Of a DNA stretch of 64,000 bases, positions 28,684-49,339 are shown one piece after another (the stretch's first letter is position 1; each line of letters begins with the position of its first letter). The stretch covers positions 96,001-160,000 of the forward strand of contig JAAOZP010000017.1 of the NCBI GenBank assembly GCA_011605725.1. Direction: 5' to 3'. Under the pieces are notes generated by a model. It was given only the letters and a program-made list of their open reading frames with translations. It was not told where the DNA came from and ran no database searches. Source of the stretch: Nitrososphaerota archaeon (GTDB lineage Archaea > Thermoproteota > EX4484-205 > JAAOZP01). Both the position numbers and the translations under genes were made by a program.

Positions 28684-28684
28684 T

Positions 28685-29944: not shown

Positions 29945-29950
29945 CTTATC

Positions 29951-32856: not shown

Positions 32857-35160
32857 TTACTCTACTCGAACACTGCTGAAGAAGACTGTTCTAAAGCCTA
32901 TGGTTCTAGCTTCACCCGTAACCTTGAAACTGCCTCTAAGCCTTATGTCCTCTGAAGAAGCGCCGATAAAGACTTCGAATACACCTGGCTCAACCACCAG
33001 CCTCATATGCTCATCGTAGAAGGCGAGCTGCTCAGTGTAGAGCGTGAACTCAACCATCCTAGTCTCCCCTGGCTCAAGACTCAGCCTTTTGAAACCCTTA
33101 AGCTCCATCACCGGCCTAGTGACGCTTGCCACAGGATCCCTCACGTAAAGCTGAACAACCTCGTCGCCCTTCAAGCCACCAGTATTCCTAAGTTTAAAAC
33201 GTATTTTAACACTGCCTGTGGAACTGGCTTCCTGGGGCTCGATCTCGAGAGAACTGTATTCGAAGACCGTGTAGCTTAAACCATGGCCGAATGGGAACGC
33301 TGGCTTAGCATCCATCCCGACGTAGCTCCTGAACGATGAAGGCTTCCTGTTATAGTTCAGCGGAATCTGGCCAGCGTCCTTCGGGAAAGAAACTGGAAGC
33401 CTTCCACCCGGATTATAGTATCCGAAGAGGACGTCTGCAACAGCGTTACCTCCCTCTTCACCAGGGTACCATGCTTCAAGTATTGCTGAACAATTTTCAG
33501 CCATCCAGCCTAGGGAAATCGGCCTGCCGTTAACAAGCACAAGTATAACCGGTTTACCGGTTTTGCAGAGCTCCCTCACCAAATCCTCCTGGACCCCGGG
33601 CAGCCCCAGGGAAAACCTGTCACACCCCTCGCCGGAAACCCCTCTTTCAAACATTCCAGACTTTTCACCCATCACTGCTACCACCACATCCGACTCCAAG
33701 GCTGCTTTAACAGCTTCGCTAAACTCTTCTCTCGACCCCCCGGTGATGTCGCAGCCCTTAGCGTATTTCACCAATATTTTTCCTGAAGCCCTGCTCCTGA
33801 TGCCCTCAAGTATGCTGACCGTCCTAACCGCACCCTCCTTGAAAACCTCGTCGTAGCCAGGCGGCGGGTTAGCCATATCCATGTGAGCCGTGAAACTATA
33901 GTCCCCGTGTAGGTTCCTCTTGCTGTCGGCATTCGGACCTATGACTGCTATCGACTTAACTGTCTCCCGGATCGGGAGGACCCCGTTGTTCTTCAGGAGG
34001 ACGATCGACTCCCTCGCAGCCCTAAGGGCGAGAGCCCTATCCTCATCCCTGTCAAACTGGCTTTTAGCCTCCTCAGGGTTGACGTACGGGTTTTCGAAAA
34101 GGCCTAGTAGAAACTTGGCTCTTAAAACCCTTGAAACCGCCAGGTCTATAAGACCTTCAGAAACCCTGCCCTCTCTAACAGCCTGCAGCAGTGGCTCCCC
34201 GTAGCAGTCTACATGGGGAAGCTCAATATCAATCCCGGCTTGAAACGCCTGGACCGCAGCATCCTTAGCGTCCTTAGCAGTGTTGTGAAAGTTTTCAAGC
34301 ATCCTGATGGCGAAATAGTCTGAGACGACAAACCCTTGGAACCCCCATTCACCCCTGAGAATATCTGTGAGAAGCATTCTGGAGGAGGCGCAGGGAACCC
34401 CGTCTATCTCGTGGTAAGCGTTCATAACCGATAGGACCCCGGCAACCTTAACCGCGGCCTCAAAGGGAAACAGGAAAACCTCTCTCAGCTCCCTAGGGCC
34501 TGCGTGAACCGGGGCACAGTTCCTCCCGCCTTCTGGAAAACCGTGGGCTGCGAAATGCTTGACGGTTGCTATGACACCGTTCCTCAAATCCTCTCCCTGG
34601 AGGCCCTTAACGTAGGCAACCCCCATGCTTGCAACCAGGTATGGGTCCTCGCCATAGGTCTCCTCCGTCCTGCCCCATCTCGGGTCTCTCAGAACATCCA
34701 GAACAGGTGCAAGCCCCTGATGGGCTCCGGAAGCCCTAACCTGCCTCCTTATCACTGAAGCGACTTTTTCAACAAGCTCCGGATTCCACGTGCTTGCTAA
34801 GCCTATCGCCTGAGGGAACACTGTAGCCCCCATCGCTAGGAAGCCTGTTAAACACTCCTCGTGGACGATAGCAGGCACGTGAAGCCTAGTCTTCTCAACC
34901 AGGAACCTCTGGATCTCGTTGGCAATTCTAGCACCATCCCCGGGATTAACCCCTAGGGCTCCTGATAAGCGTGTTAACTCCCCTATGCCTTTTTTAAGCT
35001 CCTCCAGCTTTTCACGCGGCATAGCTGCCACTCCGAAAACCCTTGGCCAGACTGACTGGAGTTGAGCAAGCTTCTCCTCCAGCGTCATCCTTTTCAAAAG
35101 ATCCCTAACCCTGAGCTCAACAGGTGCTGATGAGTCAAGGTAAACAGGCTTATCCTCCAT
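32857..35160 (-). CDS. Glycoside hydrolase family 3 (beta-glucosidase/xylosidase), cytoplasmic
   Basis: MTLEEK, DPRWGRTEETYGEDP, KHF, VVSDY nucleophile, GEGCDR, FPFGHGLSYT, FnIII C-terminus. Confidence 0.96.
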   Translation of the reverse strand: MEDKPVYLDSSAPVELRVRDLLKRMTLEEKLAQLQSVWPRVFGVAAMPREKLEELKKGIGELTRLSGALGVNPGDGARIANEIQRFLVEKTRLHVPAIVHEECLTGFLAMGATVFPQAIGLASTWNPELVEKVASVIRRQVRASGAHQGLAPVLDVLRDPRWGRTEETYGEDPYLVASMGVAYVKGLQGEDLRNGVIATVKHFAAHGFPEGGRNCAPVHAGPRELREVFLFPFEAAVKVAGVLSVMNAYHEIDGVPCASSRMLLTDILRGEWGFQGFVVSDYFAIRMLENFHNTAKDAKDAAVQAFQAGIDIELPHVDCYGEPLLQAVREGRVSEGLIDLAVSRVLRAKFLLGLFENPYVNPEEAKSQFDRDEDRALALRAARESIVLLKNNGVLPIRETVKSIAVIGPNADSKRNLHGDYSFTAHMDMANPPPGYDEVFKEGAVRTVSILEGIRSRASGKILVKYAKGCDITGGSREEFSEAVKAALESDVVVAVMGEKSGMFERGVSGEGCDRFSLGLPGVQEDLVRELCKTGKPVILVLVNGRPISLGWMAENCSAILEAWYPGEEGGNAVADVLFGYYNPGGRLPVSFPKDAGQIPLNYNRKPSSFRSYVGMDAKPAFPFGHGLSYTVFEYSSLEIEPQEASSTGSVKIRFKLRNTGGLKGDEVVQLYVRDPVASVTRPVMELKGFKRLSLEPGETRMVEFTLYTEQLAFYDEHMRLVVEPGVFEVFIGASSEDIRLRGSFKVTGEARTIGFRTVFFSSVRVE

Positions 35161-35287
35161 CTTTACTCACAAATTAAGCCACTCTTCTTCAATATTTATG
35201 TTTTCAAGCCGTCGCCACCGCTTAAAGCAAAGAGTTGCGGCTTCAAATCGTTAGAATTAAAATTATTTAAGGCTGAGAAAGCGATTA

Positions 35288-35420
35288 TTGAAAGAGGGAA
35301 CAACGGCTAGAAGACTGACGGTCCCGGATATTGATAAATGCGTCGGATGCCAGCTCTACATGTTCAAGAAGGTTCGGAGAGGCATGGTTCTCCAGGTCAG
35401 CCATAAGCGTTCAATCAGAC
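35288..35420 (+). pseudogene. Remnant of a 4Fe-4S dicluster protein gene
   Basis: RRLTVPDIDKCVGCQLYMF, then after a frameshift SRRFGEAWFSRSAISVQS; third Cys lost; sequence breaks off at the convergent GH gene. Confidence 0.55.
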
Positions 35421-35423
35421 TTC

Positions 35424-36860
35424 TTACGGGCTACGCGTCATCCCACCCACATGCATGATCTCAGCCTTGAGATTGACGGAAGTAGCCCTCGTAACCAGAA
35501 TCACCCATGGCTCGTCATTTATGTTCACAAGGCCGAAATTACTGTTCTCACCATCGAACCTGCCCTGAGCAGGCTGGTCTGAATACTGAAACCAATGGTA
35601 GCCAACCACATATGGCTCGGAAAGAAGTTTTGCAACGTATTTCTCAAAACGCTCCGCCCTATCTTCCTGTGTCGCTAAAGGTGTTCCAGCACCCTTAGTG
35701 TTCGGCAGCCCCGAATCCCTTGCCTTAAAAGAAAACTCGGTGATAATGACTGGCAGACCAGTTAGACGGTTTATAGCCCTAAGGTCCTCTATGGGAGGCT
35801 CCCAACCATAGTTGTTTATCGAAACCACGTCAGTATAACCGACACATCCCTTTAAAACTTCATCCGGAGGCCTGAATGCGAACCTGCATCCCAAAATAAG
35901 GTGGTTCGGGTCATGTCTTCTTATCGCGTCATGACAAACCTTAAAATACCTTTTCGAAACGACCTCTAGGAAGCCAAGCCTATCCGAATCCAATGAGGCT
36001 CCGCCGGGAGGCTCGTAAACATTCAGGATATCCTCGAAAGAGTTGAAGCCCGTTCCCCATTTAGCGTTAAGCTCCCCTATGTTGCCGTACTTCTCCCTTA
36101 GATACTGGACTAGGGCTTTCTTACCCGGCGCATCTTTTTCAAGGGCAATATAGTCGTCGAAAAGATGCTTAGTAGACCTCCAGTCAGGCCCCCACCTCAA
36201 CTCATTATCTGTGAAGTAGCCTAAGAGATACGGGTCGTCCCTTCTTGAAGCACATATTTCCCCCGCCGCCTCATCAGCCACCTCCTCGAACCTTTTCGAG
36301 AAATAGTCCACAACCTTTCCGCTTAACCATTCTGACCCGGCTTTCGCAGCAATGTCAAGTATTATCGTGTATGGGATTTTAAGCCTGTAGAGCTCGCTGC
36401 TAGACCAGGCGCCTATAGTGTTGAAGCCATAGCTGCGAAGCCTCTCAACAGTGGCTTCAGCCCAAGACTCAGCATGCCCGTATTTCCCTAGAACAACCCT
36501 GTTGTACGGACTGTATCCTAGAGAGGGAGAGTAATCCCCGTCGAAGCTAACATGATTCACCCCTTTAGATATGAAGCCGTTTCCCTCAGGATCTATAATC
36601 CACCAGACGCCGTTAATCTTCTCAACGTGGAAGAAGCCTGTAGCTGTACCTTTAACACGCAACGTCCCACCGTAAGAATCATAGAAGAGGATTGATATAA
36701 GGCTTGCCAGGCTTTTAAAGCTTTCACTGTGTTCAGCGAGCTGACGGTTAAGCTCCCTGACTGATTGCATTGAAACGGATAGGTTGTAGAGTGAAAACGC
36801 TAGGATTATCAGCATGATTACGAGGAGCAGGCGCATCATCTTAAAACTCGACGTCATCAA
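35424..36860 (-). CDS. Membrane-anchored GH50/agarase-like clan GH-A glycoside hydrolase
   Basis: N-terminal TM + coiled coil; GFFHVEKINGVWWIIDPEG, FNTIGAWS, GYFTDNEL, ITEFSF, VGYHWFQYSDQP..GRFDGENSNFG. Confidence 0.8.
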   Translation of the reverse strand: MMTSSFKMMRLLLVIMLIILAFSLYNLSVSMQSVRELNRQLAEHSESFKSLASLISILFYDSYGGTLRVKGTATGFFHVEKINGVWWIIDPEGNGFISKGVNHVSFDGDYSPSLGYSPYNRVVLGKYGHAESWAEATVERLRSYGFNTIGAWSSSELYRLKIPYTIILDIAAKAGSEWLSGKVVDYFSKRFEEVADEAAGEICASRRDDPYLLGYFTDNELRWGPDWRSTKHLFDDYIALEKDAPGKKALVQYLREKYGNIGELNAKWGTGFNSFEDILNVYEPPGGASLDSDRLGFLEVVSKRYFKVCHDAIRRHDPNHLILGCRFAFRPPDEVLKGCVGYTDVVSINNYGWEPPIEDLRAINRLTGLPVIITEFSFKARDSGLPNTKGAGTPLATQEDRAERFEKYVAKLLSEPYVVGYHWFQYSDQPAQGRFDGENSNFGLVNINDEPWVILVTRATSVNLKAEIMHVGGMTRSP

Positions 36861-36928
36861 ACGGTCTTACGCCGCCGTTTTTAAAAACTTTCCGTCAGAC
36901 TTAACCAACTAATACGTGAAAAGGATTG

Positions 36929-36947
36929 TGAAAAAGATAAAAAAAAT
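36929..36947 (-). terminator. Oligo-T terminator after the OPT-like gene
   Basis: TTTTTTTTATCTTTTT on the minus strand just after the stop at 36953. Confidence 0.6.
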
Positions 36948-36952
36948 GGTTT

Positions 36953-39052
36953 TTACGGTTTGAACAGGGTTTGCATCTTCGGGAATACTACTCCAAGGTT
37001 CAGCAGCGCAGCGGGCAGCCACATGGCGCCGAAGCCCAGGATCCATCCTGCTACGATAGGCATAGCATACTCCTCATACCTCTTTATTCCAATAGTCCTG
37101 ATCACGACGAATTTTATTATTAACGCGATCAGCGAGGTGAGCCACATGTATGTCGGTATAGTCATGGATATGTAGAGCGCTGGAACGCTTATGAACCAGA
37201 AGAACGGAACCTTAAGCTTCAATATGTAGAGCACGAGCGCCAAAAGTATCCCAAGGCCATAGCATATTCCAAGAGAGTATTCTACTGTCAGCTCCGCCGG
37301 CCCAGCCCACCTGCCTCTATGGTAGTAGCCTGCAGCCATCCAGGGCCACCATGTGAACACACGGTCACTCAGCTGGTTGACACCGCCCTGCGTGTTGAAG
37401 ATGAAATAGGTGTCCAGCGGAACAAACACGAAAAGCAGCACAACCATGCCGATGATCAAAGCTATCAGGAAGTCCCTCATCCGCATCTTGAGCTCGTAGG
37501 CAAGCTTGTAAAGCGTTACTTGGAACCCGCCGGACAATGGGCCGAAGGAAACGTTCCAGTGGCCAGCGTTCGCCATATGCCTAGCTATCGTGAACCAGGC
37601 TGGGTCAGTCATAGGCGTGTCCCAAGTTACGGCGGTGGGCGCAGGCCACCCTCTTAGGGCTGACCCAACTACGTAAGTCGGGTCCCAGGCGGCGGGGCCA
37701 GCACCCCAGCCTGTTCCAACGTGCCAGAACACCTCCGCGTATACCCTAGCGTAGGTCACGTGGAAGACGAGTGCCCATAGTGGCACCAGGAGGGCGATCA
37801 ACGGGTCTGCTCCTTCAATCAGCATTAACGCGTACCATCCGAACGCGCCTATAAGTAGTAGCAATGGGATTGTTCTCATGGATAGACCCCTCTCCTCCCC
37901 TCCCTTCCACAGGGATGAGAAGACGCTTGCAAACCTCTTCCTCTGAGTGTAGAGGCACCATATCGCTATTCCAAGGCCCACGCCGGTTGAAGCAACATAC
38001 CTGTATGGGAAGGGCATCCATACTCCCGGGTATGATTCCCAAGGCCAAACGTACTCCATTCCAGCCTGGTATGCGACTATGCCCATGCTTACGCCTATGC
38101 CCTGGTAGAGCACGCCGAAGATGATCCAGCCGAGTATCAGGGTTATCAGAGCATCGTTAGGCATAACCAGTCCCACGGCTATCTGAGGTATGAAGAATAT
38201 TGCTGAAGCATATATCCCGGGCCAGAGCGCGGCGAGGAAAGGCAGGTTCACATTCTGCTCACCCCACCATGCGGACGCTGGGAACTCCGGCCAGAGCTCA
38301 GCTATCAAGGGCTGTATTCCGCTTATCATGCCTATTACGAACATGCCCCAGAAAATCTTTGAAGTTGGAACCTTGAAGTTGAAGAGCCTAGACTTGTTGG
38401 TAGTGGGATCAATCTCACCCGCTTCCCTGAACAGGTAGAGAGATGGAACAGCCAGCGGGAAGATTAGCCTCTCCTCCTCAACCCAGACCTTGCCGAATAC
38501 GAATGTCACGAAAATGCTTATGAAAGCGTAGAACATGTAGACTAGGCCCCAGTATATTATTGCGTTCATTATGTAGCCCCATGGAACAGTTTGCCCAGGA
38601 GCCTTACCGTTCATCAGCATCGTAGCAATCTCGAAGCGTACCGGCTCAGGAGCAATTACGACTGCTGGAACAGCCTTGCTCCAGTAGTCTCTCAAGGCGT
38701 CGATCGAGAACGCTTCGTAATCGCTTAGGGCACCGTACACGGGCATGCTTAAAGGATTATTATGGGCTGCGGCATGCATCGTAAGGTAGGAGTGCATCCC
38801 TAGGAATGAGATGACTGAGAATACGAAAACCAGCTCCTGCGGCGTCAGCCTCATCTTAGGATTGGCTCTCCCTAGGAGTTCAAATATCACGACTAAGTAC
38901 ACCATAGGTAGGATGAAGGTACCGAAAGTAGACGTCTTATCAGTATATAGGCCTACTACAACCGACATGTATGCGAAGAATATTGCGAGGGGGATGGAGA
39001 TGGCGAGTGATTTTGCTGTTAAACCTGTTCTCAGCTCTACTTCAGTAGCCAT
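36953..39052 (-). CDS. OPT-superfamily-like polytopic membrane protein (DUF6785/DUF6784-like)
   Basis: Many TM segments; GLTAKS, RLTPQEL, WVEEERLIFPLA. Confidence 0.7.
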   Translation of the reverse strand: MATEVELRTGLTAKSLAISIPLAIFFAYMSVVVGLYTDKTSTFGTFILPMVYLVVIFELLGRANPKMRLTPQELVFVFSVISFLGMHSYLTMHAAAHNNPLSMPVYGALSDYEAFSIDALRDYWSKAVPAVVIAPEPVRFEIATMLMNGKAPGQTVPWGYIMNAIIYWGLVYMFYAFISIFVTFVFGKVWVEEERLIFPLAVPSLYLFREAGEIDPTTNKSRLFNFKVPTSKIFWGMFVIGMISGIQPLIAELWPEFPASAWWGEQNVNLPFLAALWPGIYASAIFFIPQIAVGLVMPNDALITLILGWIIFGVLYQGIGVSMGIVAYQAGMEYVWPWESYPGVWMPFPYRYVASTGVGLGIAIWCLYTQRKRFASVFSSLWKGGEERGLSMRTIPLLLLIGAFGWYALMLIEGADPLIALLVPLWALVFHVTYARVYAEVFWHVGTGWGAGPAAWDPTYVVGSALRGWPAPTAVTWDTPMTDPAWFTIARHMANAGHWNVSFGPLSGGFQVTLYKLAYELKMRMRDFLIALIIGMVVLLFVFVPLDTYFIFNTQGGVNQLSDRVFTWWPWMAAGYYHRGRWAGPAELTVEYSLGICYGLGILLALVLYILKLKVPFFWFISVPALYISMTIPTYMWLTSLIALIIKFVVIRTIGIKRYEEYAMPIVAGWILGFGAMWLPAALLNLGVVFPKMQTLFKP

Positions 39053-39139
39053 AAGGTTTTCACCTTCGTTTAGTTATACATTTGCAAAATTTAAACTTTA
39101 CGCATGTAAACTTTGTTCCATAGAGCCAGACTTTAAAAA

Positions 39140-39155
39140 TGGGTTTGCAAACCCA
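39140..39155. promoter_or_regulatory. Perfect 16-bp palindrome, candidate operator
   Basis: TGGGTTTGCAAACCCA directly after the TATA-like CTTTAAAA in a divergent promoter region. Confidence 0.45.
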
Positions 39156-39198
39156 CGGATGAATATGCAACCCCTTCCACTCCCGAAGTTAGATTTAT

Positions 39199-39885
39199 TT
39201 GGCGAAAATTCAATGGCATAGGGTAATGTCGTGGGTTCAAAGCGTGAAGAGGGCTCTTGAAAAGTATGAAGTGTCTTTTGAGGAAACAGGCAGGGGAAAC
39301 CTTGTTGTAAAGCCCGTTGAAAACCCGCAGATAAAGCTGATTATCCTCGTGAGAAGGATGCAGTTCAGCTTTGAAAGGAAGTTTGAAATCACCGGTGTGC
39401 TTGAAATCCCTGAAGAAAGGCTTGAGAAACATGATAAGCGTCAGCTTTTAAGAAGGATGCTTTCAGAGTCTGTGGAACTGGAGTTGAAAGGCGTTTTGAG
39501 AAGAAGCGTGAAGGCCAGCAAGTGGAGTGGACTCGCATCACTAACCGGGATAAACATGCCCGAGGAGGAGGGTATTATGCGAGTCATCGGGACCAAGGAT
39601 TTTGAGGAACTGGTTAAGAGGGGGGGAGGCGACTTGATAGAAATCTTTCCATCCATCATACCGGTCGAACTGTTCGAAACATACTTGATGGCTTCAGACA
39701 GAGGGCTGATAACCAGCAGCCTTGTTAAAAAATACTTGGAGGATCCTCAATCCATATCTTGGATCGTGAGGATGCACATGCTGTATGGCCTCCAGTCTCC
39801 GGGAGTGGTTCAGAAAGCATTCCTCACCGTTGTCAACTTGCTTAAGAAAATAGAGGAGTATACTTACACTACGCTTTTGCCATAG
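39199..39885 (+). CDS. Hypothetical soluble protein inside the carbohydrate/transport locus
   Basis: 228-aa ORF with typical composition; its 3' end overlaps the convergent gene by 17 nt. Confidence 0.7.
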   Translation: MAKIQWHRVMSWVQSVKRALEKYEVSFEETGRGNLVVKPVENPQIKLIILVRRMQFSFERKFEITGVLEIPEERLEKHDKRQLLRRMLSESVELELKGVLRRSVKASKWSGLASLTGINMPEEEGIMRVIGTKDFEELVKRGGGDLIEIFPSIIPVELFETYLMASDRGLITSSLVKKYLEDPQSISWIVRMHMLYGLQSPGVVQKAFLTVVNLLKKIEEYTYTTLLP

Positions 39886-42800: not shown

Positions 42801-44422
42801 TAGTTATAGATAACAACCCGGCCTTGAAGAGCAGCATACCCGGGGTATGCCCTCGTGTTGGAAAGCAGAAACCTTGTTGGCTTGATCGAGGCCCTATCTA
42901 TATTCCACTCCATCCGTAGAAGCCTGTCAACAATATGGAGGGCAAGTTGGAAGTATGGGTCTAAAACTTCTACATTAGCATAGCTCGAATCGTCAATGGG
43001 GGAGCCCACGTAAATCCTGTTTGAACGCCTGGTTGTTATGGAGAAAGCCGGTATACCTGCGATCGAAGCAGGCTCAGAATCCAGCATGAACGGTATCGGC
43101 TCAGTCCCTGAAAAAACGTTGTATTGGAAGAAGATGCTTACAAGCGAGGAGATGAATGTGCTTGACGAGGCTGAAACGTTAATGTTCGGCATTCTCCTCG
43201 CGAAGCCTCTGACTTCAGGCGTGTCAACTATACTCCCTATGGTTGTGCTAAACCATGAGAGCCTCAGCGGGAAGCCGCCGCTGTGTATGGCTGTCCCCCC
43301 GTAGGTTGAGTACTGGCTTGCGTGAAGAAGCTGAAGGCCGTCGGAGTCGCTCGCCATAAGGTCGAAATTTATGTTTCCGAGAATCGTTATCTTCCCACTG
43401 CTCACATCCCCTCTGAAAAAGTAGTCCTCGACAAACTCTCTCGAGCCGCTTAGCGCCTGCCAGTGTCCGGAGTAAAGCGTTACCCATACTGAATACCTAG
43501 GCGGGTTGGCCTTGAGGTGACGGGCATACTCGAGTAATAAAGCCAATGGTAACAGCTCAGTCTTGCTCGCCGACAAGCCTGGGACAACAGACCACGAGTC
43601 GAAATGTGCAGACAGTATGACGACCTCGTTAGGCGAAGCCGTGCCATTTATAAACCCAACTATGTTTTCAGCCTCAACCTCCCTCCAAGCCATTCGGGAA
43701 ACGATCCTAACCCGGGTGGCGGTTTTCAAAACATCCCAATCCTGCTTCTTAACGTAGACCCTCGTGAAACCCATGGGAGTATCTAGGAATTTAGCGTAGC
43801 ACTCCTGATAGGTTGTTTGCTCCGGCTCTATGAATATTACGGCCTCGGCTCCCAGGTTAACTGCTTTAAGCCAGTTATCCCGAGAATTAAACTCCATAGC
43901 AACTATGCTACCCTCCACATTCTTCCCATCTAACTCCTGCAAGTCGCCTCCCCCAGCGTAAATCAGGCTTCCAACTATCCCGCCGGACGGGGTTGGGCAA
44001 GGGTTAACACCGTTAGGATAAAGCGCGTAAGCGTTAAACCTGGCTTTAAAAGGCTCTAAAGCCTCGACATAGGTCTCCTCATCATAGGGCACCAGTACCT
44101 TATACTTGTGTTTCTGGGTCACTATCCCCACATCATTCTTAAGATAAGAGTAAAGGTATTCCAGCGTCTTGTAGTAGCCCGGGTAACCAGTCATCCTAGA
44201 ACCATAGGAAGACACTTCTGCCACAAACCTGTTCATCCAAGCCGTGTCTATCGGAAACAGTTCTTCGTCAGCTGAAACAGGACTTTTGAAAGCAGAATTC
44301 AAATCAGGCTTTAAAGATGTGTAGTATTGCTGCCCATAGATTGGTGGAACCTGTGTGACAGATATTAAGAGGATGGATAGGGAGAGAAGCAGTATCGACA
44401 TGATCTTAATCCTGCCAGCCAT
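39869..44422 (-). CDS. Large fusion: signal peptide, PA-domain/M28-like ectodomain (degenerate active site), Ig-like domain and MacB/FtsX-like permease modules
   Basis: GSRMTGYPG, PA domain (LIYAGGG..LDGKNVEGSIV..GAEAVIFI), SAHFDSW; RRPFRAILV; LRERVREVHIFSIVGLSP...FMTE. Confidence 0.85.
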   Translation of the reverse strand: MAGRIKIMSILLLSLSILLISVTQVPPIYGQQYYTSLKPDLNSAFKSPVSADEELFPIDTAWMNRFVAEVSSYGSRMTGYPGYYKTLEYLYSYLKNDVGIVTQKHKYKVLVPYDEETYVEALEPFKARFNAYALYPNGVNPCPTPSGGIVGSLIYAGGGDLQELDGKNVEGSIVAMEFNSRDNWLKAVNLGAEAVIFIEPEQTTYQECYAKFLDTPMGFTRVYVKKQDWDVLKTATRVRIVSRMAWREVEAENIVGFINGTASPNEVVILSAHFDSWSVVPGLSASKTELLPLALLLEYARHLKANPPRYSVWVTLYSGHWQALSGSREFVEDYFFRGDVSSGKITILGNINFDLMASDSDGLQLLHASQYSTYGGTAIHSGGFPLRLSWFSTTIGSIVDTPEVRGFARRMPNINVSASSSTFISSLVSIFFQYNVFSGTEPIPFMLDSEPASIAGIPAFSITTRRSNRIYVGSPIDDSSYANVEVLDPYFQLALHIVDRLLRMEWNIDRASIKPTRFLLSNTRAYPGYAALQGRVVIYNYSKGWYDGVPGALVEVRLVTSTYKLNRIVMKSGEDGSFTVHGVPISGAAGGGGTAVIFSRWIARGWVFNEEGVITMATDLGQFGMMNFPLEITVLHAYENVTVVIAKAVSMEVLDFEIPTVIMTPSIIDPRAGAFEMWRSPPQPVMVSSFEMLTKSPPISYGYYSNGWEPVSIVWVQPGIRFVVASPTGILLTNSSLENTEGSGFYVNYGEKERIRFSTFSTAKDLYYVSYGRYLELVKRNMGSPSADETLNKARKYIEEVEKRLARKEYSGMYAYALLARAYAVRAYSVEVMPLINDSAKSLLYMFILVIFGAFFLEKLVIKAHGSRRIVAIAVLSAIFLALFGILHPAFGLMSNISLGMMGSLILIVILIVFIIILSISEEVRKGIEKRVLGVHRAEVSRLDTAMISFSLGSEHMRRRPFRAILVFITLITMVIAMTSFTSLMPGRVTVPVTRYGYECNSYRDEILIKQGRGVPPNILSDKILDIAKIFAADKYYVFPRVWIYGPVDRAAWTTSFRVWSATNTSRIPAIMGMTVEEFNRIVRGTCIVRGGLLSDDADQAVISRSLATNLSVTIGDTIYVSGIRFTVTGIIDSNEVDFLQEADGYNIFPANPSFFPTISRDMAVSAQAGSSPPNLGVSTTMIIPYKRALMIGGYIASIALVPKEKMSFEEVFSLAKELAYSLDLSIYVSHEGKPYLLSTFTTVLLGGWEIIWMIVILGALNIFTTVLGSLRERVREVHIFSIVGLSPMGVTVFFMTEVLVYAVVSALVGYIAGYFMTRVFMLLGILPSEHVFNFASAFAILGTLVTMASALAAAAYPSYMASKVATPSLERRWKFKTKPKGNEWDIPLLISVSTIEEGRGLLAYLHEYFSGAGAVKEGVHMVKELQPPNYEDLSLSLTVSLSPFEVGVSQRVDIAARLNEEVKRYDVVLHLERLTGPQSTWVTSNYRFVNELRKQLIMWGSFSAAEKASYISMAKA

Positions 44423-44484
44423 GTCTTTTGTAAAAATGGAAGTAGACCGGCTTATAAGTTTTTAGCAAATTAAAAATTTTTATA

Positions 44485-46434
44485 TTGGAGCATCACGGTG
44501 GAAATCGAGGTGAAGGGCCCCTGACGGAAGCCTCGCAGGAATTTTCACCGGGATTGACTTGGAGAAGCATCCTAGCAATGATAATGGCTGCACTAATCTT
44601 CCTGCCCTCCTCAATATACTTATGGTTTGCAGTAGGATCCGGAGTGAGCACAGCCGCAACCTATGTGACAGCAATACTTTTCACAGCCTTAACACAGATT
44701 TACGGCAGGAGGCTTTCAAGACAGGAGCTTTTCATAATATATTCTATCGTAGGAGGAATAGGCGGAGCCATGCCCATGTACTACTGGCTTGTCTACAGGT
44801 CTTACTACGTTACTAATCCTTTAAGCCTAGAGTTCAAGCTTTTCAACACCCCATTAAGGGAATATGTTCCCACATGGATGTCTCCCCCAGCAACTTCAGT
44901 CGTCCACCAGCTGAGAACCCTGTTGCATCCAGACTGGTTTTTCGCCCTAGGCGTAAACCTTGCCTTCTCAATCCTGGGCCTGGCAGCAGAACTATCCATA
45001 GGCATACTGTTCTCCTACCTGTACGTGGTGGAGGAGCCTCTGCAATTCCCGTTCGCACAGATCGACACAGCCATGGTGAACACTCTGCACGACAGGAGGC
45101 CTCAGGACCTGCTTTACTTCATCCTGTCTCTAACGATTGGAGCAATATACGGCTTAATACTTTACCTGGCGCCTATGCTCATCGGCCCCCAGGCGCGTTT
45201 AATCCCATACCCCTGGGTTGACTTAACACCCTACACGCAGTTCTTCCTGCCTGGGGCTGTAATAGGCATAGCAACAGACCCGTTGAGCTTCCTCTACGGC
45301 ATGATCCTGCCTCCCTCGCTGACTTTCGCTATGCTCGTGGGGTCAGTAATCACATGGATCTTCGGAAACACTCTTACTCTAACAACCTTCAAAAGCTTCT
45401 CTCCCCAGTGGGTTGAGGAGTATTCACCAGGGATGGGAATATTCCTGATACTTCAGAGAGCAGGCTTAAGACTCTGGCTCTCCCTGTTCATGGGTCTATC
45501 CTTCGGCCTAGCGATCTATCTTTTAGCCGCGACAAGCAAGAAGATCCTTGCAGCTTTCAAAACACTTCCGAAAATAAGCAGGCTGAAGGGTGGGCCAGGA
45601 TATCCTTCACCAAGGATACTGCTCGCCACATTCTTCTGCTCCACCGTTTTAAGCGCACTGCTCTACAATATTCTCCTCCCGGATGTTCCATTGTGGCTCC
45701 CCATAATTGTTTCAGTAGGGTTCAGCTTCGTCCTAGCGTCTGTCGGCGCCAGGATTTATGGTGAACTCGGGCTGACCTTCTCCGCCGACTTCATATACAA
45801 CATGTGGAAAGCAGCCATATACTTCAGTCCCTACAATGGCTATGCTGGATGGATTTTCACACCCGCCATAGCGGGCTTCTCCACACCATACTTTGCAAAC
45901 TCCACAAAGGTGGCGTATGCGACTGGGACAAGACCCATGGACTATTTTAAGGCAGTCATAATATCATTCATACTGGTAACAACGTTCGGCCTTATATTTA
46001 CAGACTTCTTCTGGAGAATAGCTCCAATACCCTCCTACTTATTCCCATACGTGTACGGTATTTGGCCGAACTATGCCATCAGCGACTCGCTGTTTGCAAC
46101 CCGGCAGATACTCATAAAGCCGGACCAGATACTGATGGGAATGGGCATATCCATCGGCGTCAGTCTTGTTTCAATCCCGTTAAACAGGCTGGGAATACCG
46201 TTTAACCCGGTTGGGCTAGTCGGCGGAATGTACAGCACGCCACCCTACACGGTTATGCTGTTCCTAATGTCGCTTGTAAGCAAGTATTTAATGACGCGTA
46301 TACTCGGTCCGGAAAAATGGTTGTCAATAAGAGGCATTGTGCTAGCAGGATTTGCAGCAGGCATAGGTATTGTAGTAGCAATGGGAACCACGATCACTCT
46401 GGTTTCAAGAGCCTCATGGATATGGCCCTGGTAG
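44485..46434 (+). CDS. OPT-superfamily-like polytopic membrane transporter
   Basis: GLTWRS, RLSRQEL, YVVEEPLQFPFA; many TM helices; divergent from the M28-FtsX gene across 62 bp. Confidence 0.75.
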   Translation: MEHHGGNRGEGPLTEASQEFSPGLTWRSILAMIMAALIFLPSSIYLWFAVGSGVSTAATYVTAILFTALTQIYGRRLSRQELFIIYSIVGGIGGAMPMYYWLVYRSYYVTNPLSLEFKLFNTPLREYVPTWMSPPATSVVHQLRTLLHPDWFFALGVNLAFSILGLAAELSIGILFSYLYVVEEPLQFPFAQIDTAMVNTLHDRRPQDLLYFILSLTIGAIYGLILYLAPMLIGPQARLIPYPWVDLTPYTQFFLPGAVIGIATDPLSFLYGMILPPSLTFAMLVGSVITWIFGNTLTLTTFKSFSPQWVEEYSPGMGIFLILQRAGLRLWLSLFMGLSFGLAIYLLAATSKKILAAFKTLPKISRLKGGPGYPSPRILLATFFCSTVLSALLYNILLPDVPLWLPIIVSVGFSFVLASVGARIYGELGLTFSADFIYNMWKAAIYFSPYNGYAGWIFTPAIAGFSTPYFANSTKVAYATGTRPMDYFKAVIISFILVTTFGLIFTDFFWRIAPIPSYLFPYVYGIWPNYAISDSLFATRQILIKPDQILMGMGISIGVSLVSIPLNRLGIPFNPVGLVGGMYSTPPYTVMLFLMSLVSKYLMTRILGPEKWLSIRGIVLAGFAAGIGIVVAMGTTITLVSRASWIWPW

Positions 46435-46534
46435 AAAACAGTGTCTGAAAACTGGTTTCCCCCTAGGCTGTGTTTTCGAACATTCAGGCCTGAAACCTGC
46501 TCCCAGTTTTAAGACTTATATCTTCTTGACAAAG

Positions 46535-46548
46535 CCTGTTTAAACAGG
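46535..46548. promoter_or_regulatory. Perfect 14-bp palindrome abutting the start codon of the GH5-like gene
   Basis: CCTGTTTAAACAGG immediately before ATG 46549, downstream of TATA-like TTATAT. Confidence 0.4.
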
Positions 46549-49266
46549 ATGAAGAAAACATTTTTAATCCTGCTGACAATAGGCCTGATTGCTTCTCTAA
46601 TCTTACTCCAAAACCTATTTAAACCCGTGAAGCTTGAGGAACGAGTGTTTCCCTTCTATCTCCCCTGGGATGACAGTGAGCAGACTGTGATAAGTATGAG
46701 CAGTAGTCTCCCTAAGCCGGCTGGTAGCCTTGGACACGTTTACGTTGGGGAGGACGGACACCTATATGTTAACGGTGGAAGAGTGAGGTTTCTAGGAGTC
46801 AACATCTGCGGAGGAGCATGTTTCCCTGAGAAGGATGAGGCTGAGAGGATAGCCAGAAGGCTTGCTAAATTCGGGGTCAACGTGGTGCGTTTCCACCATA
46901 TGGATGCAAACTGGGAGGTTTTTAACATATTTGACAAGACCACTGGGGGTACACGTCGCCTAAACAAGGATGCGCTCGACAGGCTTGACTACTTTATTTC
47001 AAAGCTTAAGGAGAACGGCATATATGTTGACCTGAACCTGCTCGTGTCGAGAAGGTTTACTTCTGCAGACGGCTTACCTGGAGAAGTGGAGACGGTAGAC
47101 TGGAAGGACCAGCAGGTCCTCGGGTTTTTCCTCAAAGAGTTTGAAGAGCTTGAGAAAGAGTATGCTAGGCAACTCTTAACCCATTTAAACACCTATACTG
47201 GAATGACTTACGCTGAGGACCCTGCAGTGGCCTTCGTTGAAATAGTGAACGAGCAGGGGCTTATTCATTCTTGGCTTGGCGGCGTTATCGACAGGCTTCC
47301 AAACTTTTTTAAAAACAGGCTTCAGGAGAAGTGGAACGCCTATTTGAGTTCGAAATACTTGTCTGACGAGGAGTTTAGAAAGGCGTGGAGGGTTGAAGCA
47401 GACCCGGGAGCTCAGGCCGAGGTTCTGAGAAACGGCTGCTTCGAAAATGGTTTGGAGGGATGGGTAGTTGAGGTTCATAACGGTGCGCAAGCATCCGGAA
47501 GAGTAGTTGAGGAAAACGGGGGAAGGATTCTGGAGATAAAGGTTACGAGACCCGGTTCAGAAAGCTGGCATGTGCAGTTCAACCAGCCTGGTTTAAGAAT
47601 CAGGGAGGGTGAAAACTATCTTGTCAGGTTTAGGGCTAAGGCTGATAAAACGGTTAGCGTAAGCGTGAGCCTAGTTCAGGCGCACGAGCCATGGAGGCTA
47701 GTTTCGCAAAGGGTTGAAGTATCGCTGACAACAGAGTGGAAGGAGTACGAGGTGGCTCTAGTTGCGTCAGAGTCAGAGGATAATGCTAGGCTAGACGTTT
47801 CAGGGCTCGGCGGGAACATAGCAACCTACCTTTTCTCCTGCTTCTCCATGAGGCTTTTCAGCGGGTACGGGCCGATGGAGGATGAGAGTGTTGAAAAGGC
47901 GAACGTTAGGATACTGACGCTTGCCGAATACGGCTTAAGGACGAGTGCAGCCAGGAGAGACTGGGCTGAATTCCTGTACATCACGGAGGAAGAGTTTTTC
48001 ACGGAGATGTGCAGATTCGTTAAAGATGAGCTCGGTGTGAAAGCCCTGGTGATAGGTACTGTAGTTGGGTGCAGCACGCCGAACATAATGTCTAAGCTCG
48101 ACATTGTAGACACGCATGCCTACTGGAATCATCCCTCCTTCCCAGGAACTCCCTGGGACCCTAGCAACTGGTACGTGGTTAACGAGCCGATGGTTAACAA
48201 CCCTCAGCGAAGCACTATAGTAAGCCTGGCTGTTAAGAGGGTTGTGAACAAGCCTCACTTCGTCACCGAATACAATCATCCTGCTCCGAACATGTATGAT
48301 TCTGAAACAGTCGTAACGCTAGCAGCGTATGCTGCACTGCAAGACTGGGATGGAATCTTCCTTTTCGACTACGGAAGCCGTGGCGACTGGGACTCTCGAA
48401 GGATAAGAGGGTTTTTCGATATTGACCAGCATCCCGTTAAAATGGCGAGCATGATAGCTGCGCACATGATATTCTTGAGAGGCGATGTTAGGCCTGCTGA
48501 ACAGCTTGTTTCCGTAAGGCTCGGTAGACAGGACGAAATAAACCTGATAGCGGCGGGAAAGGTTTACGCTTGGGCGCTGCCGGACGGTGGCCATATGGGT
48601 TTAAACCCATTGGTCTCCCTCACGCATAGAATAGCCGTCAGCCTCGAGGAGGAAGATTCTCGCGAGACTGGTTCCAGTGTTTCCGGGCCTGTCTACCGCT
48701 CTGACACCGAGGAGATCACTTGGGACACGTCTGAGTCTGGAAGAGGCATCATCACAATAAATACTTCGAGAAGCATAGCTGCCGTAGGCTTCACCGGGGG
48801 CAGGAGCCTAGACTTCGGAGAACTCGTTATCGAACCGGGTGAAACGCTTCTAGAAGGCTGGAGCCTCATAACAGTCTCAGTGCTGGAGGGAGAAAGCTTC
48901 GATTCCTGGAGGAGGCTGCTGGTGATAGCTGCCGGCTACGTTACTAACACTGGGATGAGGCTCCGCACGTATGAGGGGAACACAGCCTTATTAACTTGGA
49001 GACTAAACGGTTTAGCCGGTGTGAAAACAGCTGTGGAGCCCATAACCTGCGGCACTAACTGGGGTTCGGCCCCAACGCTAGTGGAGGGGGCTAGGGCAAC
49101 GCTGAAGATTAGAACGGACGGAGAAATAGAAGTATGGGCATTAGATAGCGTGGGAAAAAGAATAAAACGGGTTCAGGTTTCTAGTGAGGGACAGTATAAA
49201 GTTTTTTCAATCGGCCCCGATTTCCAAACCATCTGGTATGAGATAGCTCAATCCGAAACCGGTTAA
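46549..49266 (+). CDS. Secreted/anchored clan GH-A (GH5-like) glycoside hydrolase with an inserted CBM4/9-like module
   Basis: Signal anchor; RFLGVN, VRFHHMD, EIVNE (acid/base), VTEYN (nucleophile); LRNGCFENGLEGW...WHVQFNQ CBM. Confidence 0.82.
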   Translation: MKKTFLILLTIGLIASLILLQNLFKPVKLEERVFPFYLPWDDSEQTVISMSSSLPKPAGSLGHVYVGEDGHLYVNGGRVRFLGVNICGGACFPEKDEAERIARRLAKFGVNVVRFHHMDANWEVFNIFDKTTGGTRRLNKDALDRLDYFISKLKENGIYVDLNLLVSRRFTSADGLPGEVETVDWKDQQVLGFFLKEFEELEKEYARQLLTHLNTYTGMTYAEDPAVAFVEIVNEQGLIHSWLGGVIDRLPNFFKNRLQEKWNAYLSSKYLSDEEFRKAWRVEADPGAQAEVLRNGCFENGLEGWVVEVHNGAQASGRVVEENGGRILEIKVTRPGSESWHVQFNQPGLRIREGENYLVRFRAKADKTVSVSVSLVQAHEPWRLVSQRVEVSLTTEWKEYEVALVASESEDNARLDVSGLGGNIATYLFSCFSMRLFSGYGPMEDESVEKANVRILTLAEYGLRTSAARRDWAEFLYITEEEFFTEMCRFVKDELGVKALVIGTVVGCSTPNIMSKLDIVDTHAYWNHPSFPGTPWDPSNWYVVNEPMVNNPQRSTIVSLAVKRVVNKPHFVTEYNHPAPNMYDSETVVTLAAYAALQDWDGIFLFDYGSRGDWDSRRIRGFFDIDQHPVKMASMIAAHMIFLRGDVRPAEQLVSVRLGRQDEINLIAAGKVYAWALPDGGHMGLNPLVSLTHRIAVSLEEEDSRETGSSVSGPVYRSDTEEITWDTSESGRGIITINTSRSIAAVGFTGGRSLDFGELVIEPGETLLEGWSLITVSVLEGESFDSWRRLLVIAAGYVTNTGMRLRTYEGNTALLTWRLNGLAGVKTAVEPITCGTNWGSAPTLVEGARATLKIRTDGEIEVWALDSVGKRIKRVQVSSEGQYKVFSIGPDFQTIWYEIAQSETG

Positions 49267-49339
49267 CGATACTTTAAACGAAGAGGTTGAGGGCAGTGGA
49301 GTGATAAGTTCTTATGCTACTTGCCAGACAAATAGTTTT

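Follow-up and report, generated by a model that had tools for sequence, protein, structure and literature searches.

Gene organization of the locus

The window analysed is a 64,000-nucleotide stretch of DNA from a hot-spring, Brockarchaeota-like archaeon, in which a three-gene membrane cassette (OPT-A, giant and OPT-B) lies among genes encoding sugar-cutting enzymes. The features between positions 32857 and 49266 are listed with the evidence for each:

32857-35160, minus strand: GH3 exo-glycosidase, 767 aa (Pfam Glyco_hydro_3 N- and C-terminal domains, Fn3-like)
35424-36860, minus strand: GH50-like clan GH-A hydrolase, 478 aa (phmmer matches to GH50 beta-agarases)
36953-39052, minus strand: OPT-A, polytopic DUF6785 protein, 699 aa (Pfam DUF6785)
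39199-39885, plus strand: conserved soluble protein, 228 aa (homologues at the same position elsewhere)
39869-44422, minus strand: giant receptor-FtsX protein, 1517 aa (Pfam Peptidase_M28, MacB_PCD and FtsX)
44423-44484, no strand: AT-rich divergent intergenic region between giant and OPT-B, 62 bp (read directly from the sequence)
44485-46434, plus strand: OPT-B, polytopic divergent OPT/YSL protein, 649 aa (Pfam OPT matches in the family, AF2 fold)
46549-49266, plus strand: CBM4-containing, GH5-like enzyme, 905 aa (Pfam CBM_4_9, weak Cellulase match)

A sequence-only reading of this DNA had claimed these coordinates and this gene order, and the genes were found where it placed them. Its cytoplasmic GH3 enzyme is borne out by the Pfam Glyco_hydro_3 match and by a hydrophilic N-terminus without a signal peptide, which predicts a cytoplasmic location; the closest solved structure is the beta-xylosidase 7zb3 (E 2e-269), and the gene is retained in orthologous Brockarchaeota loci. 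The product of the adjacent gene, described as a surface-anchored GH50-like clan GH-A hydrolase, matches the beta-agarases 4bq2 and 5z6p (phmmer, E 9e-54), carries a hydrophobic N-terminus (anchor or signal) that predicts an extracellular location, and has counterparts in seven related loci. At the opposite end of the locus, the 905-aa protein had been read as a GH5-like enzyme with a CBM4/9 domain. The domain is present (Pfam CBM_4_9, E 4.8e-14) and resembles the CBM4 of the T. maritima laminarinase (1gui, E 6.5e-12), and an N-terminal anchor predicts an extracellular enzyme, whereas the GH5 part is weakly matched, both by Pfam Cellulase and by GH5 mannanases (at best E 1.8e-5). This gene is present in nine related loci.

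The earlier gene inventory overlooked the 228-aa gene, which is convergent with the giant gene and shares 17 bp with its 3′ end. In a Thermofilaceae locus, L032, the equivalent position is occupied by a homologue (30% identity, E 2e-32), and 14 of 39 related loci have a counterpart. The protein has no Pfam match, and an Atlas look-up lead to DUF3156 was set aside as weak and of low recognition.

The 62-bp gap reported between the divergent giant and OPT genes was confirmed; it contains a TTTATA-like element, and the OPT-B start may instead be the GTG at 44509. The same divergent arrangement is seen again in L032, L046 and many of the loci L049-L083. A promoter and terminator scan, made with bacterial models on an archaeal host, gave counts no higher than shuffle level. 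In agreement with the earlier reading, no gene for a sugar-binding protein (including a sugar ABC binding protein), MalF/G permease or MFS carrier was found within 32857-49266, nor was any ABC ATPase gene, and the Pfam families of SusC (TonB-dependent transporter) and SusD have no match among the genes of the stretch. A KaiC gene and the 304-aa gene that follows it were considered as parts of the system and dropped, since the latter is unrelated to the 304-aa gene upstream of the C5 cassette copy (E 0.32).

The OPT-like proteins

OPT-A matches Pfam DUF6785 (E 4.6e-20, 72.1 bits against a gathering cut-off of 25). It has four to five paralogues, which stand at the head of each cassette, and the C2 paralogue matches DUF6784; these two families (PF20581 for DUF6785 and PF20580 for DUF6784) have no described function and are not mentioned in the literature searched. 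Neither OPT-A nor OPT-B matches Pfam OPT (PF03169) directly, even at E ≤ 10, NCBIfam likewise gives no match to OPT, and a PDB sequence search with the family profiles of both returned nothing useful. Within the OPT-B family, 11 of 33 members do match Pfam OPT (best E 2.4e-12). Profile-profile comparison of OPT-A with the OPT-B family using hhalign gives a 99.9% probability (E 1.2e-34, 583 columns), by which the two proteins are distant, full-length paralogues. The AF2 model of OPT-B (pLDDT 85.5) superposes over its full length on barley YS1 (7wst, 7wsr; Foldseek E 2.5e-11, probability 1.00, TM 0.64-0.69) at a sequence identity of 14-15%; YS1 is the sole OPT-family match of the model, and subsequent matches are unrelated (TM < 0.2). 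Judged by its homologues, the profile comparison and the predicted OPT-B fold, the pair belongs to the OPT superfamily, as the description of two OPT-like proteins had proposed.

Characterised OPT-family members (TC 2.A.67) are proton-coupled importers whose known cargoes are oligopeptides or metal chelates rather than sugars. The cassette proteins differ from this OPT/YSL group in that they always occur as an A/B pair together with a giant FtsX protein, and their gene context is one of glycosidases.

Architecture of the giant FtsX protein

The giant protein comprises a signal anchor, an ectodomain of ~800 aa, three extra TM helices, a type VII ABC membrane core and a cytoplasmic tail of ~140 aa. 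Three domains were delimited:

43328-43666, minus strand: pseudo-M28 peptidase-like domain, residues 253-365 (alignment to NAALADL1, 4twe)
40307-41611, minus strand: MacB/LolC/FtsX-type core with periplasmic Porter/Sabre-like domain, residues ~938-1372 (fold matches)
39911-40294, minus strand: C-terminal cytoplasmic alpha/beta domain, residues ~1377-1504 (family conservation)

The protein had been described as a PA/M28-Ig-MacB/FtsX fusion. Its M28, MacB_PCD (Pfam E 2e-7) and FtsX (E 2e-10) components stand, while the PA domain falls below the Pfam cut-off (E 0.047) and is weakly supported, and the Ig domain has no Pfam support.

The M28 domain bears a weak similarity to NAALADL1 (E 0.0018), in an alignment that keeps the HxD motif but replaces the bridging Asp and substitutes His-Trp for the Glu-Glu pair. 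In agreement with the earlier label of pseudo-peptidase, both Glu residues are gone in 44 of the 48 aligned family members (35 having His plus an aromatic residue), and in the remaining four a single Glu survives, at the second position of the pair. Because the co-catalytic zinc ligands and catalytic Glu are not retained as a set, the domain is classified as M28-fold and not as a peptidase, and the loss of metal-binding and catalytic residues suggests that it is probably a binding module. In this it resembles the non-catalytic M28B-fold receptors such as the transferrin receptor, whose catalytic relatives are GCPII and NAALADL1; it differs in being fused to an ABC-type membrane domain and in its marginal PA domain.

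In the AF2 model of residues 830-1517 (pLDDT 82), the core has the four TM helices of FtsX, TM1 and TM2 being separated by an extracytoplasmic domain, and a short helix between TM2 and TM3 occupies the position of a coupling helix. Its fold matches MacB, LolC, YtrF, FtsX and HrtB (Z 12-15), with FtsEX-EnvC, YtrEF and YbbAP included. By VIA-align, the best scores are Z 15.0 to YtrF (9o9x) and Z 14.1 to MacB (5nik), and the MacB periplasmic domain 3ftj is matched at Z 13.1 (rmsd 3.5 Å, 185 residues); Foldseek matches MacB 5gko at E 2e-12. The four-helix core and its Porter/Sabre-type domain are thus features shared with type VII ABC systems (MacB of MacAB-TolC, LolCDE, FtsEX, YtrEF, HrtBA, BceAB and YbbAP), from which the giant differs in its large pseudo-peptidase ectodomain, the N-terminal position of its extra helices and its conserved cytoplasmic tail.

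The C-terminal domain has no Pfam match, and its middling fold matches to KA1, TBP-like and START/Aha1-like domains (Z 8-9) are of a generic alpha/beta kind, from which no function was drawn. A 700-aa module of the giant that includes this domain matches 1763 clusters at E ≤ 1e-30. The family, which numbers at least 1,763 clusters at 50% identity, is found widely among archaea and extends to bacteria.

The cassette as a conserved unit

Five collinear copies of the cassette are present in the genome, on C5, C13, C3, C2 and C7, the last being the locus described here, and the eight-gene locus as a whole is retained across Brockarchaeota MAGs down to 59-79% protein identity. The OPT-A/giant/OPT-B trio was also found in Thermofilaceae (L032), a Thermoproteota MAG (L046), a metagenome contig (L043), a Sumerlaeota bacterium (L034) and two metagenome operons (L035 and L044). 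The co-occurrence of the three membrane genes, which the earlier reading had made a test of its proposal, was upheld in a survey of 39 OPT-B loci in other archaea, found with a narrow alignment: the giant is adjacent in 34, the other five are truncated within 450 bp of a contig end, and OPT-A lies within 10 kb in 28. Among 121 Thermoproteota genomes sampled, giants were found in 36 and OPT-B in 32, all of them among those 36.

Trees of OPT-A, the giant and OPT-B are congruent (patristic r 0.97, 0.93 and 0.91; Mantel p ≤ 0.0005; 21 cassettes), and since this congruence extends across the paralogous cassettes of one genome it favours a specific partnership. The genes of any operon inherited as a block would also be expected to co-occur and to give congruent trees, so neither observation proves that the proteins are in physical contact. 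The cassette very probably acts as a single functional unit. That the three membrane genes merely adjoin one another with no shared function, in what would be a cluster of hydrolases and miscellaneous transporters, is already disfavoured and we consider it extremely improbable: the order of the genes is maintained between archaeal orders and extends to bacteria, one genome holds five paralogous copies, phyletic overlap is near-perfect and the trees agree, against which stand solitary OPT-A homologues, beside GH57 genes (L001) or beside KaiC and DUF6786 (L002), and a genome (G098) whose best giant is ~700 kb from its OPT-A/OPT-B pair, with a weak FtsX-like match ~4 kb from OPT-A.

The same data bear on the proposal that the giant and a common motor work as FtsEX or YbbAP do, performing mechanical or regulatory work outside the membrane, for example to activate or position hydrolases at the cell surface or to remodel the S-layer or envelope. 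On this view the OPT-like proteins would act as scaffolds, or would be carriers that are co-regulated but unrelated, and the giant itself would import nothing. According to reviews, the characterised type VII ABC systems all act by mechanotransmission on partners outside the cytoplasm and do not import, and the fold matches to FtsEX-EnvC, YtrEF and YbbAP, the anchored extracellular glycoside hydrolases encoded next door, and the roughly half of the genome's giant FtsX proteins that are without an OPT neighbour are consistent with such a role. However, M28-type giants are almost invariably paired with OPT-B (34 of 39 loci, 32 of 36 genomes), the three trees agree across paralogous cassettes, and extracellular glycoside hydrolases are not conserved cassette partners outside Brockarchaeota, all of which argues that this proposal is unlikely to be correct.

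A candidate ATP motor in trans

The sequence-only reading had taken the three membrane proteins for a multi-subunit oligosaccharide importer. The cassette is probably not self-contained: the giant has a type VII core, and the probable remaining components, a short FtsX protein and ATPases, are encoded elsewhere and were missed. Their identification comes from operons in which they sit beside the giant. In metagenome operon L035 the order is ABC, short FtsX, ABC, giant, OPT-B, OPT-A, and in L044 it is GH2, OPT-A, OPT-A, two small genes, FtsX, ABC, giant, OPT-B, ABC, while in the complete genome G046 a distance of 3 kb separates OPT-B and the giant from the genes for the short FtsX and two ATPases. 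The candidate counterparts in the present genome are:

C10 57025-57720, strand not given: short FtsX candidate, 231 aa (38% identity to its operon counterpart)
C10 57728-58462, strand not given: MacB-type ATPase candidate (57% identity to its operon counterpart)

The short FtsX has no ectodomain and is encoded once in the genome; the motifs of the ATPase are intact, and a paralogue 61% identical to it is encoded on C11. Across the sampled Thermoproteota, a short FtsX occurs in 34 of 36 giant-bearing genomes versus 3 of 85 genomes without giants. Apparent stop codons in G071, G023 and G081 had suggested short-FtsX pseudogenes, a possibility that was rejected because the open frames fall little short of the matches in length, which places the stops in the upstream extension of the alignment.

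The ATP motor is probably supplied in trans here and in cis elsewhere. By analogy with L035 and L044 we infer that the giant would form a heterodimer with the 231-aa FtsX and would pair with one or two MacB-type ATPases, and the C10 motor, together with the C11 paralogue, would be common to the five cassettes and to other giant FtsX proteins. MacB-type ATPases and a second FtsX subunit encoded beside the giant (L035, L044, G046) would be a further likeness to type VII ABC systems. The cassette differs from these in the minimal size of its likely FtsX partner, in a motor encoded in trans and apparently common to many paralogues, and in its constant pairing with two OPT-fold proteins. We know of no characterised type VII ABC system with OPT-fold partners.

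Glycan context and alternative substrates

All five cassette copies in the genome flank glycoside hydrolase or phosphorylase genes. GH130 and GHL10 genes lie immediately downstream of the C5 and C3 copies, respectively, GH38 neighbours the C2 copy, and the C13 copy is flanked by glycosylasparaginase, GH38, a GH42-like gene and an S9-like hydrolase, while the C7 copy has the GH3, GH50-like and CBM4/GH5-like genes described above and no peptidase. In other lineages the neighbours include GH2 within the operon (L044), NamZ, GH4 and SASA (L036), GH1 (L046) and an AXE1/GCE esterase (L043). The claimed CAZyme linkage thus stands for all five genome copies and for several other lineages but fails in Thermofilaceae, whose orthologues have no CAZyme neighbours, and in the genome-wide count it is modest, with 4 of 13 GH3, GH38 and GH130 genes within 10 kb of a cassette, against ~6% of the genome, a biased count giving weak support since these families were picked after being seen near cassettes.

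The missing CAZymes in Thermofilaceae are among the points in favour of a cassette that imports peptides, glycopeptides or another non-sugar nutrient, its OPT pair retaining the substrate class usual for the family, its M28-derived ectodomain binding a peptide or glycopeptide, and the glycosidases serving the scavenging of glycoproteins and not of polysaccharides. OPT superfamily membership, an ectodomain from an aminopeptidase fold akin to GCPII/NAALADL1, an M20 peptidase near L046, and enzymes of an N-glycan type (glycosylasparaginase, GH38 and S9-like hydrolase at C13, GH130 at C5, GH38 at C2) point the same way. Against this are the enzymes of the C7 locus, which are typical of polysaccharide attack, the GH2 gene inside the L044 operon, NamZ and GH4 at L036, and a giant paralogue whose ectodomain is GH2-like, and we regard import of this kind as rather unlikely.

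The gene next to that GH2-type giant encodes undecaprenyl-diphosphatase (BacA), and other loci have polysaccharide export or glycosyltransferase genes nearby: Wzy_C and Wza-like (Poly_export/SLBB) genes beside L034, and a PMT-family glycosyltransferase between the cassette genes of L033. These would fit a cassette that serves surface or exopolysaccharide assembly by exporting or flipping glycans or lipid-linked oligosaccharides. Such a function appears highly improbable, however, as the neighbours are mostly catabolic and cytoplasmic (GH3, GH130 phosphorylase, GH38, GH1, GH4, sugar kinase, GFO_IDH or xylose-isomerase-like) and characterised OPT-family members import.

A proposed glycan-uptake system

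Glycan uptake is plausible, and the term oligosaccharide importer is drawn from gene context; whether the substrate is a glycan and the direction import is, in our judgement, an evenly balanced matter. The known substrates of the OPT family and the extracytoplasmic work of type VII systems count against import of glycans. The genome encodes many conventional ABC ATPases, so sugar uptake does not depend on the cassette system.

The logic of the locus is that of Bacteroidota PULs (SusC/SusD) and of Gram-positive and archaeal sugar ABC loci, with anchored endo-type enzymes, a candidate surface receptor, a transport module and a cytoplasmic exo-enzyme, and with a separate CAZyme set for each cassette paralogue. 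The component folds are entirely different, however, and the locus is without a TonB-dependent SusC, SusD, a solute-binding protein or a MalF/G permease. Since the host archaeon has no outer membrane, the likeness to SusCD is limited to this logic and is a functional analogy at best. The best explanation overall, to which we give about half of our confidence, is a glycan-uptake locus of the polysaccharide-utilisation type, in which OPT-A, the giant and OPT-B form one copy of the conserved and uncharacterised cassette, with a motor in trans.

In such a locus, the anchored GH50-like and CBM4/GH5-like enzymes would cleave a beta-linked polymer outside the cell, and the pseudo-peptidase ectodomain would capture the resulting oligosaccharide, or possibly a glycopeptide. 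ATP-driven mechanotransmission would then pass the ligand to the OPT-A/OPT-B pair, which would conduct it across the membrane, and the cytoplasmic GH3 would complete its breakdown. A more specific and more tentative model, held at clearly less than even confidence, is a hybrid uptake machine in which interchangeable receptor cassettes, each made up of a giant FtsX, whose dead-enzyme ectodomain would be specific for its substrate, and a heteromeric pair of OPT-fold channels, plug into one common type VII ABC motor (short FtsX and ATPases) that feeds glycans into the OPT-fold conduits.

Significance

The earlier suggestion that the system is not previously characterised agrees with the literature on DUF6785/DUF6784, FtsX with OPT, Thermofilum OPT and Brockarchaeota, in which no prior account of the cassette was found. 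The cassette is of large size, is present in multiple copies and is conserved in both archaea and bacteria. Existing annotations of its proteins are limited to M28 peptidase, FtsX permease, DUF6785 and hypothetical. To our knowledge, the uptake of complex glycans in archaea and many uncultured bacteria is known only for ABC systems with solute-binding proteins. If the cassette is an importer, it would be the first link of a mechanotransmission (type VII) ABC engine with OPT-fold carriers, the first sugar-related role in the OPT superfamily, and an example of a single ATP motor for many substrate-specific receptor modules. DUF6785 and DUF6784 gain a testable function, and an importer would alter how carbohydrate uptake is scored in metabolic reconstructions of Brockarchaeota, Thermofilaceae, Bathyarchaeia and related MAGs.

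Gene Content and Context of the Locus

The stretch at 32857-49266 contains eight genes, not seven, including the following features:

32857-35160, minus strand: GH3, cytoplasmic, without a signal peptide; closest solved relative is beta-xylosidase 7zb3 (E 2e-269)
35424-36860, minus strand: GH50-like hydrolase with an N-terminal anchor (E 9e-54 against beta-agarase 4bq2)
36953-39052, minus strand: OPT-A, 699 aa, DUF6785
39199-39885, plus strand: gene for a soluble 228-aa protein, convergent with the giant gene, 3′ ends overlapping
39869-44422, minus strand: giant protein, 1517 aa; Pfam Peptidase_M28, MacB_PCD and FtsX
44485-46434, plus strand: OPT-B, 649-aa polytopic protein
46549-49266, plus strand: anchored CBM4/GH5-like protein, 905 aa; the CBM4 resembles the T. 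maritima laminarinase module and the GH5 match is weak

The sequence-only reading had correctly listed the GH3, GH50-like and CBM4/GH5-like genes and the three membrane genes, but overlooked the 228-aa gene on the plus strand; the 62-bp divergent gap it described between the giant and OPT-B genes is present and AT-rich. The 228-aa gene is found in 14 related loci, limited to this cassette orthogroup, and its product may have an accessory or regulatory role in the cytoplasm.

The locus is flanked by a NurA-HerA-Mre11-Rad50 operon on one side and a KaiC-like ATPase on the other. The former, a complete archaeal double-strand-break repair operon (26692-32784, minus strand) directly upstream, is syntenic with Brockarchaeota MAG L002; the genes for the latter (277 aa) and for a 304-aa protein without a Pfam match are translationally coupled (49301-51045, plus strand), a pair that also adjoins a solitary DUF6785 gene in L002. 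The closest public relatives are hot-spring Brockarchaeota MAGs (95% identity), and all eight genes are conserved among Brockarchaeota MAGs at protein identities down to 59-79%.

The Membrane Genes Form a Recurrent Cassette

The 2.2-Mb source genome carries five copies of the cassette (contigs C5, C13, C3 and C2, and the window) in the order OPT-A, giant, OPT-B, which is rearranged in the window. Outside the source genome, the trio is present in Thermofilaceae, further Thermoproteota, a Sumerlaeota bacterium and two metagenome operons, with a looser version on a Nitrososphaerota-labelled contig (L033), where an FtsX-only giant lies approximately 2 kb from the OPT pair. Thermofilum-type genomes of family f10 have the cassette too. 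Among 39 OPT-B loci from archaeal assemblies, surveyed at one genome per species, the giant adjoins OPT-B in 34, whereas in the remaining five the contig ends less than 450 bp away, and OPT-A lies within 10 kb of OPT-B in 28. Giants were present in 36 of the 121 genomes sampled from the phylum, and the 32 genomes with OPT-B all belong to that set. The OPT-A, giant and OPT-B sequences of 21 cassettes give congruent maximum-likelihood trees (patristic-distance r 0.97, 0.93 and 0.91; Mantel p ≤ 0.0005), and in each of the three trees the five source-genome copies are divided between the same two deep clades. This recurrence, adjacency and congruence indicate, at the sequence level, that the cassette duplicates and diverges as one unit, although physical contact is not thereby proven. 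That the genes are unrelated neighbours, a reading to be set against these counts and trees, is highly improbable.

OPT-A and OPT-B

Neither OPT-A nor OPT-B of the window matches Pfam OPT directly. OPT-B homologues that share 33-42% identity carry the annotation OPT/YSL, and Pfam OPT recognises 11 of 33 OPT-B family members. The AlphaFold model of OPT-B (pLDDT 85.5) matches barley Yellow Stripe 1 along its entire length (E 2.5e-11, TM 0.64-0.69), with no other solved fold close to the model, and hhalign aligns the OPT-A and OPT-B families over 583 columns (probability 99.9%, E 1.2e-34). On these three lines of evidence the two proteins are divergent OPT-superfamily paralogues, in agreement with their initial description as OPT-like.

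The OPT-B start is uncertain, TTG 44485 or GTG 44509 (region 44485-44580). In databases several homologues appear with 618 aa, 31 residues fewer; the start chosen for them drops the family-wide conserved GLTWR motif, and such public gene calls therefore look truncated. Solitary OPT-A genes without a giant or OPT-B also occur: a Thermofilaceae MAG has one next to three GH57 genes (L001:5472-12109), and a Brockarchaeota MAG has one next to a DUF6786 gene (L002:10001-14192).

The Giant Protein

Residues ~938-1372 of the giant are predicted to adopt the type VII ABC membrane domain fold with a periplasmic Porter/Sabre-like domain. This core aligns with YtrF (VIA-align Z 15.0), MacB (14.1; Foldseek E 2e-12) and the MacB periplasmic domain (13.1, rmsd 3.5 Å), and is preceded by three extra TM helices and followed by a conserved ~140-aa cytoplasmic alpha/beta domain. 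Of the PA-M28-Ig ectodomain proposed earlier (residues ~30-830), the M28-like part stands, PA is only marginally detectable and the Ig domain lacks support. The M28-like domain retains HxD but lacks the bridging Asp, and has His-Trp in place of the catalytic/metal-binding Glu-Glu pair; both Glu are lost in 44 of 48 aligned family members, 35 of those 44 having His plus an aromatic residue. By its sequence this domain is a pseudo-peptidase, as had been claimed. The C-terminal 700-aa module matches 1,763 clusters (50% identity) at E ≤ 1e-30, and the giants make up a large family without any characterised member.

About ten giant FtsX proteins are encoded in the source genome. A second in the window (1072 aa; 56223-59441, plus strand), to which Pfam assigns an FtsX domain only, has an ectodomain unlike the M28 type and no OPT-like neighbour. 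A 1791-aa paralogue (C3 148594-153969; L040:2595-7970, minus strand) has a GH2 sugar-binding and GH2 Ig-like ectodomain and adjoins BacA undecaprenyl-diphosphatase. A PqqD-like domain is fused to the distant giant P0112 (1916 aa; L035:10001-15751) and in the source genome a free PqqD-like gene (C5 9371-9940) precedes the C5 cassette by 4.5 kb, a hint that the system uses PqqD-fold proteins as accessories.

A Candidate ATP Motor

A type VII membrane domain requires an ABC ATPase, and no ABC ATPase gene lies within 32857-49266. Metagenome operon L035 is ordered ABC, short FtsX (219 aa), ABC, giant, OPT-B, OPT-A; the self-contained operon L044 comprises GH2, OPT-A, OPT-A, two small genes, FtsX, ABC, giant, OPT-B and ABC, with overlapping junctions. 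In the complete genome G046, a short FtsX and two ATPases lie 3 kb from OPT-B and giant, and in L070, L072 and L033 a distance of 5-7 kb separates the orthologous ATPase from OPT-B. The best motor matches in the source genome, on contig C10, are a 231-aa FtsX that lacks an ectodomain (38% identity) and an adjacent 244-aa ATPase (57%) with intact Walker A, signature, Walker B and H-loop motifs; contig C11 encodes a further ATPase 61% identical to it. Short FtsX occurs in 34 of 36 giant-bearing genomes against 3 of 85 others, and in 11 of 12 families with giants against 0 of 19 without, statistics that are overstated by kinship of the genomes. From these cis motors, source-genome matches and co-occurrence, we infer that one candidate motor would act in trans, common to the five cassettes and five further giant FtsX proteins.

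Glycan Association and Proposed Function

Each source-genome copy has its own CAZyme set: GH3, GH50-like and CBM4/GH5-like in the window, GH130 at C5, glycosylasparaginase, GH38 and GH42-like at C13, GHL10 at C3 and GH38 at C2. Cassette neighbours in other, independent lineages include GH2, NamZ/GH4/SASA, GH1 and an acetyl-xylan/glucuronoyl esterase. The GH2-like ectodomain of one giant paralogue and the whole-locus conservation in Brockarchaeota also favour a glycan link. Brockarchaeota have been described as rich in extracellular CAZymes, in an account that does not discuss transporters (PMC8065059). However, Thermofilaceae orthologues of the window cassette have no CAZyme neighbours, and only 4 of 13 source-genome GH3, GH38 and GH130 genes, a count biased by the choice of families, lie near a cassette. 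The CAZyme association thus holds for all five source-genome copies and independent lineages, but not for the Thermofilaceae orthologues.

The most likely reading, given moderate confidence, is a machine that captures and takes up glycans with the help of ATP. Its four parts would be extracellular enzymes, a pseudo-peptidase receptor carried on a mechanotransmitting FtsX, an OPT-A/OPT-B conduit, and the cytoplasmic GH3. The OPT proteins characterised so far transport peptides or chelates, which counts against glycan cargo; peptide or glycopeptide import by the cassette, to be weighed against the CAZyme neighbours, is unlikely. We know of no characterised type VII system that imports, a further point against glycan uptake; an FtsEX-like extracytoplasmic regulator, to be weighed against the recurring OPT partners, is also unlikely and ranks after peptide import. 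Some cassette loci adjoin polysaccharide export or glycosyltransferase genes, again counting against uptake, and glycan export, set beside the same CAZyme sets, is improbable. The original observation is confirmed and its interpretation upheld in part: the cassette, OPT kinship and pseudo-peptidase stand, but the stretch lacks an ATPase and not every cassette has CAZyme neighbours. No description of DUF6785/DUF6784 or any FtsX-OPT system was found in the literature; a fold assignment for both DUF6785 and DUF6784 follows from the kinship of OPT-A and OPT-B.
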